Assembly (NCBI GenBank): GCA_031414955.1
Contig: JANOQV010000208.1
Span: forward strand, 1 to 64,000
Source: Pedosphaera sp.
GTDB taxonomy: Bacteria; Verrucomicrobiota; Verrucomicrobiia; Limisphaerales; SIBH01
Direction of reading: 5' to 3'
Length of the DNA: 64,000 bases
A program made the translations under genes and the position numbers. The notes beneath the pieces are model-generated. The model was given only the letters and a program-made list of their open reading frames with translations, was not told where the DNA came from and ran no database searches. Below are positions 39,517 through 64,000 of the stretch, piece by piece (positions within the stretch are counted from its first letter, which is position 1; the number at the start of each line of letters is the position of its first letter).

Positions 39517-39680
39517 AAAAAATTCCAAAACTCAAAATCCAAATCCCAAACAAATCCCAGGATCCAAAATTTCAAACTCCCCCGGCGCGGGATGAATCGA
39601 GCGTCCCGAGGCGGCGGCAGCGATTGGATTTTGGACCATTGGAATTTGTTTGGAGTTTGGGATTTGGGATTTGGAGTTTC
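39517..39680. repeat. Inverted pair of heptamer tandem arrays (AAATCCC/GGGATTT)
   Basis: CCAAA-rich arm 39517-39580, GC-rich spacer, TTTGG-rich arm 39624-39680. Confidence 0.8.
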
Positions 39681-41710: not shown

Positions 41711-42001
41711 AACTCCAAACTTCAAAATCCAAACCGAAGCGCGATGTTCGTCGGCTGCGGAGTGCGCGCTGGCTTGCGCCGGCGACAAGGTGCCGGTGGA
41801 AAAGGAGGTGACAAGTCACCGCACTCCACCTGCTCCGCGCAACTTGAGACATGGCGTGCCTCGCGGCAGCGTCTGAAGCACGGTCGATGCACCGCCGCCT
41901 GCTCCGATTCCTTCCCGCGCCAATCGCACAGCCGGCAGTTGGAGTTTGGTGTTTGGGATTTGGAGCTTGTTTGGATTTTGGGATTTGGAGTTTGGAGTTT
42001 T
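41711..42001. repeat. Heptamer array arms enclosing a REP-like palindrome pair
   Basis: CCAAA arm 41711-41733; GGAGTGCG...CGCACTCC at 41759-41827; TTTGGAG/TTTGGGA arm 41938-42001. Confidence 0.7.
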
Positions 42002-52454: not shown

Positions 52455-52576
52455 GCGTCGGTTATCTGGCGTCGGCCGGCGGCTGTCAATCAACCGACGG
52501 TGCCGTGTTACGTGCCCCGTAAAACAGGAGCGATCAGGGCTGGCGCATCTCAATCGGCGCGCCACGAGTCTCCGAA

Positions 52577-52722
52577 ACCTCAAACCTCAAGCACCAGAAA
52601 ACCCCAAAACCCAAACCCCAAGCACCAGAGAAACCCCAAGCTCCAAACTTCAAAGCGCCCCGGAGCCTCCAGGCCATCGGGCCAGTCGGAGCCGCCACCG
52701 CTTGGATCTTGGGGTTTGGGGT
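52577..52722. repeat. Degenerate heptamer arrays, inverted arms
   Basis: AACCTCAAACCTCAAGCACCAGAAAACCCCAAAACCCAAACCCCAAG... and TTGGATCTTGGGGTTTGGG. Confidence 0.65.
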
Positions 52723-55942: not shown

Positions 55943-56050
55943 CGGAGCGCGGGTTTTCAACCCGCAGCAACGTGAAATGTAGAGTGTTGTTTGGGAGTTC
56001 TTCGGCTCGAACCTTGCGAACCTTGCTGCGGGTTGAAAACCCGCGCTCCG
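55943..56050. repeat. Perfect 28-bp inverted REP pair
   Basis: CGGAGCGCGGGTTTTCAACCCGCAGCAA at 55943-55970 and its exact reverse complement at 56023-56050. Confidence 0.88.
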
Positions 56051-56104
56051 AGGAAAAATCTTTCTCCTTTGTCCCGCCTGGAGTCGCTGCTTCAATTTTC
56101 GCCG

Positions 56105-58071: not shown

Positions 58072-58623
58072 CTACGACATCGGTGCGCCCACATTGATTC
58101 CGCGCTCCAGGCAATAGGCCGCGTTCGCCACGTACTTGTCGGCCCAATGCTTCAGCCCGGCGCGCTCCTCCGGTTTGAGCGGGCGAATGATCTTCGCCGG
58201 TGCGCCCATGACGAGTGAGCCGGCGGGAATCGTCATGCGCTGCGTGACCAGCGCCTTGGCCCCGATCAAGCACTGCTCGCCGATGACGGCACCGTCGAGG
58301 ATCACCGCGCCCATGCCGATCAGGCATTCATCGCCAATGGTGCAGGCGTGAACGATGGCCGAGTGCCCGATGGTGACGTAATTGCCGACCAGGCAGGCGT
58401 AGTCATCCGCCAGATGCAGCACCGCGTTGTCCTGGATGTTCGTATGATGGCCGACGACGATGCGGTTGATGTCGCCGCGCAACACGGCGTGATACCAGAC
58501 GCTGGAGTGGTCCCCGAGCGTGACGTCGCCCACGACCACGCCGGTCTGGGCGATGTAAACGCCCTGGCCCAGCGTGGGCTTGCGGGCGAGGAAAGTGTCG
58601 AGCTGTTTGTGCAATTCACTCAT
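58072..58623 (-). CDS. Gamma carbonic anhydrase family protein
   Basis: VGDVTLG..SSVWY.AVLRGD, NIQDNAVLH, VTIGHSAIVH hexapeptide repeats. Confidence 0.92.
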   Translation of the reverse strand: MSELHKQLDTFLARKPTLGQGVYIAQTGVVVGDVTLGDHSSVWYHAVLRGDINRIVVGHHTNIQDNAVLHLADDYACLVGNYVTIGHSAIVHACTIGDECLIGMGAVILDGAVIGEQCLIGAKALVTQRMTIPAGSLVMGAPAKIIRPLKPEERAGLKHWADKYVANAAYCLERGINVGAPMS

Positions 58624-59264: not shown

Positions 59265-59339
59265 GTGAGCGTGCCGCCAGCGTCCCGCTGGCCCTGGGCG
59301 GAGGAAGGAAGGCCAGCAGGATGCTGGCGGCACGTTCAC
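59265..59339. repeat. REP-like inverted pair overlapping the ECF stop codon
   Basis: GTGAGCGTGCCGCCAGCGTCCCGCTGGCC ... GGCCAGCAGGATGCTGGCGGCACGTTCAC. Confidence 0.75.
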
Positions 59340-60040
59340 CCTTTCGCCAGCACTTCGACCAAGTAGCGCAACTCCATGTCCACATCTCCGCCCTCGTCCA
59401 CGGTCTGCGCGATCTCGGCGCGGATGACATCGCGAAATCGTTTTCTCAGGCGGTGAATGGCGACTTTGATCGCGCTCTCGCTCAGGCCGAGGCGCGTAGC
59501 GGCTTCGGCTTGCGGCAGCAACGCCGCGTCGCCCACCAGCCAGGGCTTGAGCACGGTGAATTGTTCCGCCTTGTCCGCGCCCGCGAACTCGGCGGCGAGG
59601 GTTTGCAGCGCGCGGTCCATCACGGCCAGCGCCCACTCGCGGTCGAAGAGCGTGTCGTCCGGCGTGCTGGTATGGTCGGCCACTTGCAACGCGGGCTGGG
59701 TGTCGGTCTGTGCGTCGAGTGATTCCGGCGCGACGCCGCTGCCGCGTTTCTGGCGATGTTCGCGGTCGCGCTGGTCGGCGAGGAAATGTTTCACCGCGCC
59801 GAGCAGGTAGGAGCGGAAACGCCCGCGTCGCGGGTCCGCCGCGCCGAGTCCGCCGCCCGCCAGCAGGCGCGCGAAAAATTCCTGCGTCAGTTCGCGCGCC
59901 GCATCCTCCTCGCGCCCCTCGCGGCGCAGGAAGCGGAAGACGGGCTGATAATACGCCTCGCACAACTCGCTCAACGCCCCGCGCGCCTCGACGCTTTCGC
60001 CCCGCGCGCGCAGGACGAGCGTCCAGCGCGTGGGGGCGAT
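59336..60040 (-). CDS. ECF sigma factor (kinase-associated PVC type), start missing or uncertain
   Basis: TRWTLVL, LCEAYYQPVF, A.ELTQEFF, RGRFRSYL, KRGSG, FDREWA, IKVAIHRLRKRF; no in-frame start near the conserved N-terminus. Confidence 0.8.
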   Translation of the reverse strand: MAPTRWTLVLRARGESVEARGALSELCEAYYQPVFRFLRREGREEDAARELTQEFFARLLAGGGLGAADPRRGRFRSYLLGAVKHFLADQRDREHRQKRGSGVAPESLDAQTDTQPALQVADHTSTPDDTLFDREWALAVMDRALQTLAAEFAGADKAEQFTVLKPWLVGDAALLPQAEAATRLGLSESAIKVAIHRLRKRFRDVIRAEIAQTVDEGGDVDMELRYLVEVLAKG

Positions 60041-60137
60041 GAGTGCTGAACTGGCTTCAACTTTTACGGCTTGAACAATCTCGGTGAAATGGCTCCAATG
60101 CCACGCCTGCACAACAGCAGGTTGAAATGGAATCACC

Positions 60138-61088
60138 ATGAAAACACTGCGCTGCTTCTTTCTTCTGTTGGCGTCATTGACCGGAGTGCGCCAATGCCTC
60201 GCGGCGGGTGCCAATTTCGGAATTCAAGTTGAGCGAGCGGTCAAAGTCAGCTTCCAGACCCAGCCGGGAAAATTCTACCAGCTTCTGCGTTCCCCATCGG
60301 TCGGCCCAACGGTTTGGACAAAGCTAGGCGACCCGATTCTAGGCGACGGACTCAGGTACGACGCCGGCTTTTTAACCGGGAGCAATGTTCAGGCTTTTTT
60401 CAAAGTCCAAGAGGTCGGTCCAACCAACGGCCTGGTCCTCTACTATCCGTTCAACGGCAACGCGAATGATGACAGCGGATACAGCAACAATGGAATTGTC
60501 AGCGGCGCTACGCTCGGCACGAATCGCTTTGGCGTGGCCGGCAATTCGTATGCTTTTAAGGCGACAGGCTCCTATCCGCTTTGGGTCGGGGATACGATCT
60601 CCACTGCGAATACCAACGGGTTCCCCACTTCCACAGCCGACGTGAGCGTTTCCATGTGGGCGAAGCTTTCCCTCATCGGGCCTGATTACCATCTGCTCTT
60701 TGCCAATAGAGAGAACAACCAGTTCCAATTGGGAATCGGAGTCTTCACTGGCACCAACTCGCCCATTGAGTTTTACAGCGGCTTCGGCCTCACGGCCCCA
60801 AGTCTTCAGACAGCTCCATTGGGTTGGAGCCTGGGCCAGTGGTACAACATTCAGCTTACCCGTTCCGCAAATCTCGTGACGATCTATCGTGACGGCGTTG
60901 CACTGGCTCAAGGAATCGTGGCCACGGGGAATGAAGCGGCCCCGGCCAAACTGGTTTTGGACTTCGGCTGGCGAACTTTGCCAGGAGCTGGAAACCATCC
61001 ATTGTGGGGTCAGTTGGACGATATTTTCCTCTACAACCGCGCCCTCAGCGGTGCCGAACTGCAAACCTTGTTGAACTTGCAAGAGTGA
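60138..61088 (+). CDS. Secreted LamG-like jellyroll protein
   Basis: Signal peptide; GLVLYYPFNGNAND.SG, NRFG, GQLDDIFLYNRALS. Confidence 0.88.
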   Translation: MKTLRCFFLLLASLTGVRQCLAAGANFGIQVERAVKVSFQTQPGKFYQLLRSPSVGPTVWTKLGDPILGDGLRYDAGFLTGSNVQAFFKVQEVGPTNGLVLYYPFNGNANDDSGYSNNGIVSGATLGTNRFGVAGNSYAFKATGSYPLWVGDTISTANTNGFPTSTADVSVSMWAKLSLIGPDYHLLFANRENNQFQLGIGVFTGTNSPIEFYSGFGLTAPSLQTAPLGWSLGQWYNIQLTRSANLVTIYRDGVALAQGIVATGNEAAPAKLVLDFGWRTLPGAGNHPLWGQLDDIFLYNRALSGAELQTLLNLQE

Positions 61089-61136
61089 CTGAAAGGAAAA
61101 GGCGTTTCCGACTCTGAGGGGTTCACCCTTTCCGGC

Positions 61137-61946
61137 CTAACGTACTGTTATGGTCGCGCTGAGTTCAGATAAGTGTGATTCAAAATCGTGAAGTAGTGCA
61201 TCCGCTGAGAATGTTGCCATGTCTGCCTCGACCCACTTCAAGAAGTCGCGAGCGATGAGGAAAAAAGACCACCAAGCAACTTCTAACGGGAGCCGCCAAT
61301 CCTCGGGTGTGATGAACTCACCCAGCTCCTTACTGCCGCCGAGATTCTTGCGGTAAAGGTTGCCTGCCTCAAAATTCGTATGCGTGTATGCGGAAAGAAG
61401 AATGTAGAACCGGTACAGGTGTGGCCCGTCGATGTCCTTGAGCATCTCCCAAAGTTTCGGTGCCTGCTTTGGAAGAGAGTATCCCCGCTCGGAAAGGAGC
61501 TTTGAAATGGCGGCATCGAATCGAGCGTATGTCTCATGGCGGCGTCCATAGGCCGCCGCAGCGTCTTTTGGTGTGTGCTCGCTGCGCTCCAACTTGGAGC
61601 AATGCTCTATCGCAGAACGAAGATGCAGAACCCATCGCACCTCTCGTTCATACGGGTCAACGGGGTGGAGCATCCACCGGGCGCGAACGCTGGCCTCAAA
61701 GACTGCACGAGAGACAACAATCGCGGATGGAAGTAAAACAAGGTCGTGGCGGGCCAACTGGCATACCGACTCCAAGTGGCGAATCAGAAGCTTCATGATG
61801 GTGTAAGTCTCCGTCTCAGCTTCGAAACGGCGAATCGTCCCTCGAATCGTGTCGAGGCTCGCCAGATACCGCTCAATGAGCAAGTCGGAGTCGTCGCAAA
61901 GCGCGAGGACTTCCTTGGTTGGTGGCTGGACGATGGAATTGGTCAC
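61137..61946 (-). CDS. DUF5677-like hypothetical protein
   Basis: SRAVFEA and Y.FY..LSAYTH (RxxxE...YxxxSxxxH pattern). Confidence 0.7.
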   Translation of the reverse strand: MTNSIVQPPTKEVLALCDDSDLLIERYLASLDTIRGTIRRFEAETETYTIMKLLIRHLESVCQLARHDLVLLPSAIVVSRAVFEASVRARWMLHPVDPYEREVRWVLHLRSAIEHCSKLERSEHTPKDAAAAYGRRHETYARFDAAISKLLSERGYSLPKQAPKLWEMLKDIDGPHLYRFYILLSAYTHTNFEAGNLYRKNLGGSKELGEFITPEDWRLPLEVAWWSFFLIARDFLKWVEADMATFSADALLHDFESHLSELSATITVR

Positions 61947-61967
61947 GCGACGGAGCGGCCCAGACGA

Positions 61968-62285
61968 TCAAGATTGCTGAAGAACGCCGCGATATTTGTG
62001 AAGGCTGCCAGAGAGAATCGTGAGTCCTCGGTTCTGGTTCTCCGGAGAGGAGTAATCGTAGCTTTTGCCCGGTTCGAGAGTCAGGTCGCATCCAAACGTG
62101 ACGGTGTCAAAAGAATACCTCTCAGGTTGTGGAGGGCCATCGGCGCGCAATGCTTCCTCTACGCCGGGAAATATGCCAGCAGGTGTTATGGTTGCGGGAG
62201 GCGCGGGATGGACTTTGAAGTCATTGAGGTGGTAATCTTGTCCGTTGATTCGGATTCGATGCTGACTGGTTAAATCTGTTGCCAT
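61968..62285 (-). CDS. Hypothetical protein
   Basis: 105-aa ORF in an AT-richer tract, co-oriented with its neighbours. Confidence 0.55.
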   Translation of the reverse strand: MATDLTSQHRIRINGQDYHLNDFKVHPAPPATITPAGIFPGVEEALRADGPPQPERYSFDTVTFGCDLTLEPGKSYDYSSPENQNRGLTILSGSLHKYRGVLQQS

Positions 62286-62415
62286 AGTATTTTCTATTTT
62301 TTGGATTTGGAGATAACTCGCCAATGGAAATTCGACAGCGATTTGGGGTTCAGCCCGGCAGTGAAACAGTCAGGGAACGTGGTCATTTTCCGCATTTTCG
62401 ATGTTTTTCCAGCAA

Positions 62416-62667
62416 AGCCACCGTTTCCGGCCCGATGGATCGTATTCCCGTGACTGTAAAACGGCATTTCACGGTCGCGGTCTGCCTCGCCGCTGTCGCG
62501 GGAGAGACTCCTACGGTCGTGAAATGGCATTTCATTGTCGCTAAATCATGCCCAATAGTCATGTAACCACATTCCATGCCCATAAAACGGCTTCCCACGA
62601 CCGATTGGCGGCAAACCACGACCCCGGAACTGAGTTCCACGGGCACGGATTTGCCGTCCGTGGTCAT
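62416..62667 (-). repeat. Array of about 12 degenerate 21-nt repeats (also read as the 94-aa ORF 62383-62667)
   Basis: Minus-strand units such as GCGACAATGAAATGCCATTTC, GCGACCGTGAAATGCCGTTTT, TCGGTCGTGGGAAGCCGTTTT, ATGGGCATGGAATGTGGTTAC in exact 21-nt register. Confidence 0.7.
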
Positions 62668-63087
62668 TTAACTGGACGAACTGCTGCTCGAATCGCTGCC
62701 GGAAGACGACGAGGAACTGCTGTTTGACGAGGACGACGAGCCGCGTTTGTTCGCCCCGGTCACGTTCTTGCGCGTGTTGAGGACTTGTTTGCCTTCGGCG
62801 GTCTTCTTGCCCATCGCGCCGGAGAGCAGGTCCACGGCGTCGCTGAAAGTCGTGTAATTGTTCGTGGCCGAAAGCTCGAAGGCTTTCTGCGAGTTGGTGA
62901 GGGTGGTGCGCTGGTTGTCGCGCGCGGTTTTCTTGGCGAACACATCGGCACGAATGCCGGTGAGGCTCGTCTTGACGGTGGCGGACGTGACACCTTTGGC
63001 CGTGATGGCGGCGGTGTTGTCGTCGATGAACTTGATGAGGGTGTCGAGGGAACCCAGGAACTCTTCGGGATCAGGTTGAAATGCCAT
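62668..63087 (-). CDS. Hypothetical helical protein with poly-Ser tail
   Basis: 139 aa, strong GC3 codon bias, GAAAG before the ATG; ends GSSSSSNSSSSSSSGSDSSSSSSS. Confidence 0.8.
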   Translation of the reverse strand: MAFQPDPEEFLGSLDTLIKFIDDNTAAITAKGVTSATVKTSLTGIRADVFAKKTARDNQRTTLTNSQKAFELSATNNYTTFSDAVDLLSGAMGKKTAEGKQVLNTRKNVTGANKRGSSSSSNSSSSSSSGSDSSSSSSS

Positions 63088-63196: not shown

Positions 63197-64000
63197 ATGA
63201 AATCCCGTCCACGCCTCTACTGCTTCAACTGGCCGTCGAACTTCGGCGGGGCGGACACGAAGTTTGTGCATCTGCTTTTGCTGCTGCATCGGGACTTTGA
63301 AATCACCGTCTGCCCGAACCGGCGCGAACAACTCCTGCAACTCGGCTGGCGGAAATTCCTGAAACGTCTCGGCGTGAAGGCCGCGATGCTGGATGACCTG
63401 CCGCAAAAACTTTCCGGCTGGGCGCTCTCGCTCTGCAATGGCGGCTTCTGGAAAGACGGCCTCGGCGTGGAGTGCAAACGGCGCGGGCTGAAAGTGGCGT
63501 GGTCGAGCGAGATGATGTGGCATCACGGCGGCGAATGTGGCGCGGCACAGTGGGGACTCATCGACCGGGTGCTGTTCGTTTCCGAGGCGCAGCGCGCCGT
63601 GCTCGCGGACGGCTATGGGAAATGTCCGTGGGCCATCACGGGGAATTACATCGAGCCAAGTTTCTTTCCCTTCTCGGAACGAGTCCGGGCGAAAGATGCG
63701 CCGCTCGTCATCGGCAGGCTCTCACGGCCTGACCCCGCGAAGTTCCCGCCGGACTTCCCGGAGTTTTACGAATCGCTGGACGGCAGGAAGAAGAACGCGA
63801 CGAAGTTCCGTGTCATGGCGTGGAGCGAGCAAATGCGGGACGTGTACAAAACTCACCGCTTCGATGCGCGCTGGGATTTGCTGGAGAAGGAAACGGAATC
63901 GCAAGTGGACTTCCTGCACTCGCTCGATCTGTTCGTGTACTCGCTCGGCCCAACGTTTCGCGAGTCGTGGGGGCGTTCGACAGTGGAAGCGATGCTCACC
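63197..64000 (+). CDS. Glycosyltransferase (GT-B, GT4-like), runs off the window end
   Basis: ATG 63197 open to the end; FGGADT, FVSEAQ, IGRLSR..PAK, DLFVY..ESWGRSTVEAM (EX7E); absent from the ORF track because no stop is reached. Confidence 0.85.
   Translation, partial: MKSRPRLYCFNWPSNFGGADTKFVHLLLLLHRDFEITVCPNRREQLLQLGWRKFLKRLGVKAAMLDDLPQKLSGWALSLCNGGFWKDGLGVECKRRGLKVAWSSEMMWHHGGECGAAQWGLIDRVLFVSEAQRAVLADGYGKCPWAITGNYIEPSFFPFSERVRAKDAPLVIGRLSRPDPAKFPPDFPEFYESLDGRKKNATKFRVMAWSEQMRDVYKTHRFDARWDLLEKETESQVDFLHSLDLFVYSLGPTFRESWGRSTVEAMLT

Follow-up and report, generated by a model that had tools for sequence, protein, structure and literature searches.

How does a row of short, strongly degenerate DNA repeats that begins right at the stop codon of a small bacterial gene act, and does it belong to that gene? 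We addressed this question in a 64,000-nt stretch of the genome of Pedosphaera sp. (Verrucomicrobiota; contig JANOQV010000208.1 of assembly GCA_031414955.1, positions 1 to 64,000), hereafter the window. Near its right end, the minus strand holds the gene of a 139-aa helical protein (62668..63087), followed by an array of twelve degenerate 21-bp units (62416..62667; no strand assigned). Gene and array form a real and conserved module, which is apparently undescribed. A literature search by title or abstract, with subscription journals mostly outside its coverage, returned no description of such a module, and fibronectin, 21 bp, 21 nt and Verrucomicrobia all go unmentioned in the main text of preprint 10.64898/2026.09.22.753630, as far as available.

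The array was delineated by unit alignment, autocorrelation and a symmetry test. Its twelve rows of 21 nt run from 62667 down to 62416 in unbroken register with zero indels, as the initial annotation had stated, and the coordinates of the open reading frame (ORF; 62668-63087, minus strand) likewise confirm that its TAA stop is immediately followed by an ATG. Identity at lag 21 is 0.437, compared with 0.251 ± 0.027 in 2000 base shuffles, where the highest value at any lag was 0.388. The next-best lags are 42 and 63, and the array is the strongest lag-21 stretch within the 64 kb. All twelve units are indeed distinct: the closest pair shares 17 of 21 bases and the mean is 8.7/21, which is why Tandem Repeats Finder did not detect the array. 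The unit consensus is two-fold symmetric (p 0.003). Differences between units had been described as mostly transitions. The transition share is about twice the random expectation, but transitions account for only half of the changes, both against the consensus (23 transitions, 24 transversions) and pairwise among units (401 vs 359). Neither identical repeats alternating with unique spacers nor cas genes were found at the window array, which upholds the earlier view that this is not a CRISPR locus.

The pairing of array and gene extends well beyond the window. Of 401 genomes searched in the order, 21 matched a profile of the helical family, and 10 of these matches were full-length. With two near-identical metagenome loci added, there were 15 full-length loci, one of which stops at a contig edge. 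In every full-length locus with downstream DNA (14/14), including a paralogue on contig C292 of the same genome, a 21-nt array follows the stop codon. In 13 of these loci the array was measured by shuffling, and 0 of 200 shuffles attained its score; the 14th was seen separately. The proposed check, 21-nt periodicity downstream of homologues, thus came out positive, and the suspected partnership of array and upstream protein holds. The gap between stop codon and array is 0-52 nt in 9/13 loci and longer in the others, several of which show, by eye, inserts resembling repetitive extragenic palindromes (REP). The 11 partial matches (L212-L222) had no array; four of them resemble fragments of genes, and the other seven match weakly and have ends that are unrelated. 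No match to the helical profile was found in the other 13 genomes of the taxonomic family (completeness 57-96%), nor with A4 in 400 genomes across the phylum; a related-loci search in genome contigs yielded nothing, and viral, phage and plasmid collections gave no match.

Several features recur around these loci. REP-like palindromes with CCCTCTCCC arms, at 1020-1140 in L002 and also in L012, L191 and L198, adjoin arrays. Behind the helical gene and its array there is often a member of a small gene family whose products begin with Met-Pro-Phe-Asp-Pro or a similar sequence (L153 2049-2510, L154 2464-2925, L165 870-1364; after the arrays of L013, L014, L018 and L026), and which shows either a weak tail-collar match (phrog_1800, E 0.008) or collagen-like repeats. 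In several array-linked families that are unrelated (L013, L026, L153, L154, L174; P0031, P0088, P0125), the helical domain has short Trp-rich repeats on its N-terminal side. In three loci, L004 (G308), L154 (contig C58 of the window's genome) and L018 (G015), the helical gene carries an in-frame TAG and the array is intact.

What persists between loci is the period rather than the sequence. Each locus has its own, mostly palindromic consensus, and consensuses of different loci are about as dissimilar as shuffled ones. Gene and array are thus a conserved module in which period and register outlast sequence, in agreement with the earlier observation that register is conserved more than sequence. 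Despite the differing consensuses, symmetry is significant in 11/13 family arrays and in 22/39 arrays overall, and conservation is mirrored between the two arms of the unit (rho 0.29, p 0.001). Averaged over 39 arrays, the autocorrelation has peaks at 21, 42, 63 and 84 and nowhere else, with no sub-period of 7 nt or 10/11 nt. Consensus similarity loosely follows protein similarity (Mantel r 0.41), for which shared descent suffices. Excluded from these array statistics were L197 because of its N runs, L189 because its register is irregular, and any array shorter than 120 or 160 nt; L028, a near copy of L027, entered only the analysis of 3-nt conservation period and synonymous bias.

The low similarity of units within arrays (only ~41-55% alike) had suggested a hypervariable, diversifying locus, that is, a target or donor of directed mutagenesis or recombination. 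The pair L027 and L028 argues against this reading. Their arrays differ at 5.2% of sites and their flanks at 4.6-5.8%, so that the arrays are not hypervariable, and where close array copies differ, it tends to be in the less conserved columns (p 0.097 and 0.0098). The 8 ORFs scanned in Pfam included neither a reverse transcriptase nor a recombinase, and a contig that spans 61880-62740, from run X2, possibly the source of this DNA, has 0 differences to the window, including its array region, although assembled contigs of this kind drop rare variants. We consider a diversifying locus highly improbable.

Could the array be translated? On the gene strand, the three frames across the window array contain 0, 6 and 1 stops, which bears out the description of one open frame and another broken by a stop. 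The open frame spans 94 codons (62383..62667, minus strand) in frame with the helical gene and is probably not a gene: its hexamer coding score is -0.16, it has no Pfam match at cut-off, and the peptides encoded by the arrays of different loci are unrelated. Conservation with a 3-nt period was seen in only 1 of 40 arrays; of two coding heptad controls one was clear and the second was not significant, which limits the power of this test. Stops in the arrays are not depleted overall (414 vs 389 in dinucleotide shuffles), and an excess of open frames, which periodicity alone would produce, was not used. Between L027 and L028, the 18 differing array sites have no synonymous bias in any frame, whereas 4 of the 5 changes in the gene are synonymous.

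One conserved frame with synonymous bias was thus not found in the arrays, and a weak residual trace lies in the gene's frame. In 22 downstream arrays this frame has the fewest stops (20 vs 54 and 35; p 0.006-0.015, a post hoc comparison of related loci), and it is open from the stop to the array end in 6/13 loci, compared with 1 and 4 for the other frames. The third-position deficit is 0.04 ± 0.016 and the synonymous share 0.31 vs 0.26. These values would fit present or past translation of the array in the gene's frame, yielding an extension of heptad repeats or a partner peptide through read-through of the stop or coupled re-initiation. The same idea draws on the TAA-ATG junction and open in-frame run of the window, on the equivalence of 21 nt and seven codons, and on a single record, P0021, in which two helical domains continue in frame into heptad repeats resembling a translated array. 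However, the signal is about one tenth of that in the coding heptad control, for which the deficit is 0.31 and the synonymous share 0.68. Taken by themselves, the 13 family loci give a frame effect that lacks significance (p 0.09), and it is absent from 18 arrays located upstream of genes (p 0.73). Translation is therefore improbable in our view, though the fewer stops of the gene's frame leave it some weight, and the earlier proposal of a non-coding array is supported in the main.

Alternatively, the array may act as RNA in the 3' region of the message, with each unit bound by the helical protein in autoregulation or in an RNA-protein particle. The short stop-to-array gaps speak for this, as do the absence of a terminator-like site between helical gene and array on the gene strand and the folding of the window array (z -3.2 vs dinucleotide shuffles). 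The array folds well because its consensus is palindromic, and signatures of selected RNA structure did not appear. Watson-Crick pairs between the arms number 1958 vs 1972 expected, which indicates no covariation, and G-U pairs are not in excess (377 vs 418 A-C). When the order of units was shuffled in 36 arrays, the mean folding z was -0.02 and -0.10 on the two strands, so folding energy is independent of unit order. The arrays have no strand preference, Rfam contained nothing at gathering score, and related arrays sit upstream of their genes. In run X8 we saw one 158-nt contig on the helical gene and none on the array, although contigs cannot show absence; in other runs the shares were 0.05-0.15, from which no habitat can be read. 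The suggestion of an RNA structure is thus not supported, and we rate action as RNA as quite unlikely.

With neither a codon nor a hairpin signature, the array probably acts at the DNA level, as a non-coding phased element. Period 21 is a property of many such arrays. The genome of the window (G000) holds 27 non-coding-like arrays of period 21, 91 of period 7 and one of period 10, and with the same filter none of period 11, 19, 20, 22 or 23. That 21 nt represents two helical turns is a fitting but tentative notion: arrays in this genome occur at periods 7 and 21 and hardly at 10-11, 20 or 22. The window itself contains period-7 runs at 39520-39679, 41939-42000 and 52575-52653, and a 7-nt run lies within 400 bp of 3/4 genes of the four-helix-bundle family PF05635, a parallel gene-plus-repeat class.

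Of 22 array loci mapped in G000, 11 adjoin unannotated genes of helical or helical plus fn3-like proteins (labels given by eye, except for one fold and one Atlas search), with the array upstream in 10 and downstream in 1. The 10 gene-upstream fn3 arrays share period, degeneracy and palindromic units with the window array, which differs in its downstream position and in having neither fn3 nor a sigma-54 promoter. A -24/-12 sigma-54 promoter with at most 2 mismatches to the consensus lies upstream of 1/13 family genes and after 0/13 family arrays and 0/10 gene-upstream arrays of the same genome. A DNA-pattern search found at least 124 stretches in many phyla. Among 80 that were fetched, 41 were long arrays, 4 of the 80 lay beside a homologue of one of the helical-fn3 genes of G000 and about six more beside similar-looking genes (by eye); none matched the profile of the window family.

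If the array is read as DNA, the neighbouring protein deserves attention. Its ORF is a real gene by coding score (hexamer score +0.41, GC content at third codon positions 0.81). The product consists of a helical domain of ~112 aa and a low-complexity Ser-rich tail, which with the stop codon occupies 62668..62751 (minus strand) and is Pro- or Ser-rich in relatives. The AlphaFold model (predicted local distance difference test, pLDDT, 92.5) is all-helical without strands, with four helices at residues 7-23, 25-30, 35-92 and 97-110, one of them 58 residues long. Prediction also supports a homodimer. The dimer score of 0.74, a mark attained by 20/30 solved pairs and 1/23 single chains, compares with 0.00 for the best of 3 controls, and the runs agree in at least 98% of contacts at pLDDT of at least 93. 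In the modelled dimer, the chains are antiparallel around residue 63, and each first helix packs against the far end of the partner. Tandem doubles of the helical domain occur in relatives and fit the predicted dimer; a word search found no longer fused forms, which is weak evidence.

The family is large and nearly anonymous. A profile of 15 domains retrieved 443 clusters at 50% identity (E ≤ 0.001), and 2 of 10 members looked up are named as Verrucomicrobiota hypothetical proteins. The Atlas returned unnamed Bacteroidota clusters at 0.95, and DUF6261 at 0.79 as a lead only. No match at cut-off was found in Pfam (which covered 95 members), NCBIfam, PHROGs or PDB sequences, and Foldseek gave none at E ≤ 0.001 in PDB or viral libraries. 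The best VIA matches of the model, with Z of 7.7 (50-58 residues) and 5.3, are generic helical hairpins, and such matches do not establish the fold as new. The last helix is basic; it carries the conserved residues K94 and K100 and the invariant R106. Together with the following 14 residues, this helix has a median net charge of +4.5 (72 of 95 members measurable). In the predicted dimer, the two basic end helices would lie 60-75 Å apart (a rough estimate from the contact list at 1.5 Å per residue), compared with ~71 Å for 21 bp.

We propose that gene and array constitute a small accessory cassette whose parts are inherited together. The array would provide a row of weak, two-fold symmetric sites on double-stranded DNA at a fixed spacing of 21 bp, on which an elongated symmetric protein dimer may polymerise, with each dimer taking up 21 bp. 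In a symmetric array of this period, two dyad axes are found at a distance of 10.5 bp from each other, and dimer axes and dimer-dimer contacts could fall on these two axes. The first candidate reader is the neighbouring helical protein, as a predicted dimer with a basic helix at each end. Many weak phased sites would tolerate degenerate units and let the consensus drift, with the length of the protein holding the period. In the least certain step, the result would be a local scaffold of DNA and protein, which would either restrict transcription across the cassette or organise its DNA. Taken as a whole, from cassette and phased sites to polymerising dimer and scaffold, with binding putative, this model is tentative, and we give it somewhat less than an even chance.

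A number of observations weigh against this model. The array substitution rate is about that of flanking DNA, and the gene's own frame retains the fewest stops. The charge of the whole helical domain is near neutral (median +1), the domain matches no known DNA-binding fold, and the distance between the end helices derives from contacts without coordinates. In addition, 11 of the 22 loci mapped in G000 have an array without such a gene (some at contig ends), and 21-nt arrays also flank further helical and fn3-like families, where their position is upstream in some cases and downstream in the rest. Homology between these and the window family was not detected (hhalign probability 3-10%), and a second helical family, with a predicted helix order similar to that of the window family, has an array at only 11/23 loci. 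Finally, the array consensus is not the same in the closest full-length relatives of the window protein (46% identity), and such a difference would call for rapid co-evolution or for reading of DNA shape.

Alternatively, the phased DNA element may be read by another protein, for example an XRE regulator encoded nearby or a nucleoid protein of the host, or the array may be a near-neutral minisatellite that grows by whole units and hitchhikes in the cassette. XRE-family helix-turn-helix (HTH) genes adjoin L002, L153, L155 and L172, although the block around the window's module has none. Unit identity falls with distance, from 0.545 between neighbours to ~0.43 at 9-11 units, as local duplication predicts. 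The substitution rate equal to that of the flanks is in line with this, as is the finding that gene-less arrays of G000 are paralogues of gene-linked ones. What neutral slippage leaves unexplained is one period across unrelated consensuses, the mirrored conservation and the 14/14 coupling; we regard this pair of options as unlikely, though far from negligible. An IHF-like motif is slightly enriched at array ends (26/86 vs 16 ± 4), a weak signal with 3 mismatches at the window's array, and was set aside as a candidate. In G000, the arrays at C213:30039-30384 and C119:22317-22662 are 96% identical without indels in different contexts, and the pairs C58/C127, C136/C130 and C280/C184 are 70-81% alike, which indicates that arrays were copied within the genome.

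How does the module compare with known systems? Iterons, as in R6K, RK2 and P1, are near-identical direct repeats of about two helical turns beside a Rep gene. The period is alike, whereas the units here are ~41% alike and palindromic, a Rep match is lacking, with no Rep initiator gene found in the window's block, and one genome holds 27 arrays. In TIGR-Tas and type III toxin-antitoxin systems, a small protein gene likewise accompanies a repeat array, of RNA. The window module differs: it matches neither a Nop domain nor an RNase, its period is 21 and not ~36, and it has no RNA-structure signature and no repeat-spacer alternation. On the tests run, gene and array did not show the defining features of iterons, CRISPR, structured RNA arrays, sigma-54 enhancers or diversity-generating retroelements; for the last of these, there was no reverse transcriptase among the 8 ORFs and an ordinary substitution rate.

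In its mode of action, the module would come closest to a plasmid centromere and the protein that binds it, or to an H-NS-like filament, while falling outside both classes. In plasmid centromeres (parC of R1 and pSK41 with ParR; type Ib sites with ParG or omega), a small dimeric protein coats a row of tandem, partly inverted sites beside its gene (PMC5016525). The window array is also a tandem row of sites beside the gene of a small predicted dimer. It differs from a centromere in being a chromosomal accessory site with far more degenerate units, no plasmid match and no nucleoside triphosphatase (NTPase) in its block: no gene for a motor NTPase (ParA, ParM, TubZ) was found among the 8 ORFs around the array or in the block map. 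As for a ribbon-helix-helix or HTH fold, Pfam gave no match in 95 members, and the matches from fold searches were all generic. For H-NS-like proteins (H-NS, MvaT, Lsr2, Rok), a filament on the DNA of accessory regions has been proposed, in which a helical domain forms a chain by way of two kinds of two-fold contact that alternate (PMC6936261). The likeness would lie in a helical domain that chains on DNA; what was modelled here is a dimer. Unlike these proteins, the window protein lacks a separate DNA-binding domain at the C terminus and terminates in its Ser-rich tail, the AT-hook-like Q/RGR motif occurs in only 3/72 members, and the putative target is a GC-rich phased array rather than AT-rich DNA. 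Homology of the family to H-NS was not found.

The setting of the module is that of an accessory insertion. It sits in a ~4-kb block between a Ser/Thr kinase gene and an ECF sigma factor gene (59336..60214, minus strand; Pfam and gene map) that marks the left border. The block is AT-richer, as noted before, with a GC content of 0.54-0.56 at 60001-63000 vs ~0.63 elsewhere in the window. It includes a LamG-domain gene (60138..61088, plus strand; PF13385, E 1e-14), a DUF5677/DUF6988 gene (61137..61946, minus strand; Pfam), which is an accessory neighbour outside the conserved module, and a doubtful 118-aa ORF after the array (61968..62324, minus strand; coding score -0.11, no family match). Divergent from the helical gene runs a glycosyltransferase-like gene (63197..64000, plus strand; neighbour map and coding score), which ends at contig position 64234; a paralogue of it follows the second module copy on contig C292. 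The kinase and ECF sigma genes abut in G005 and G008, and probably in G011; other inserts separate them in G006, and other genes occupy the site in G007. This junction (60214 to contig ~64250) is an insertion hotspot in the genus, with differing inserts in G000, G006 and G007 and none in G005 and G008. A dispersed repeat of ~110 bp at ~55943-56051, with similar short copies near 58130 and 58680, has dozens of copies in G007 and G008.

These findings tie a family of several hundred protein clusters without annotation to a precise DNA feature, and the stand-alone helical protein of the window implies that fn3 domain and sigma-54 promoter are not necessary parts of such a pairing. If the protein does not read the array, the arrays would still be a common class of non-coding elements fixed at period 21, which annotation tools misread as small ORFs. 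If it does, the pair would represent a DNA-binding architecture of a new kind: the period would be set by the length of the protein, and pairs found in nature may be orthogonal. A still wider reading, which we think rather unlikely, is that of a widespread and undescribed class of cassettes built around a rod-shaped helical dimer, which may stand alone, be fused in tandem or be linked to an fn3-like domain. This dimer would serve as a molecular ruler by polymerising along a 21-bp palindromic array of its own, with a drifting code. In that case, orthogonal pairs of protein and array would number a dozen or more in a single genome, with a new DNA-binding fold and a chromatin-like scaffold.
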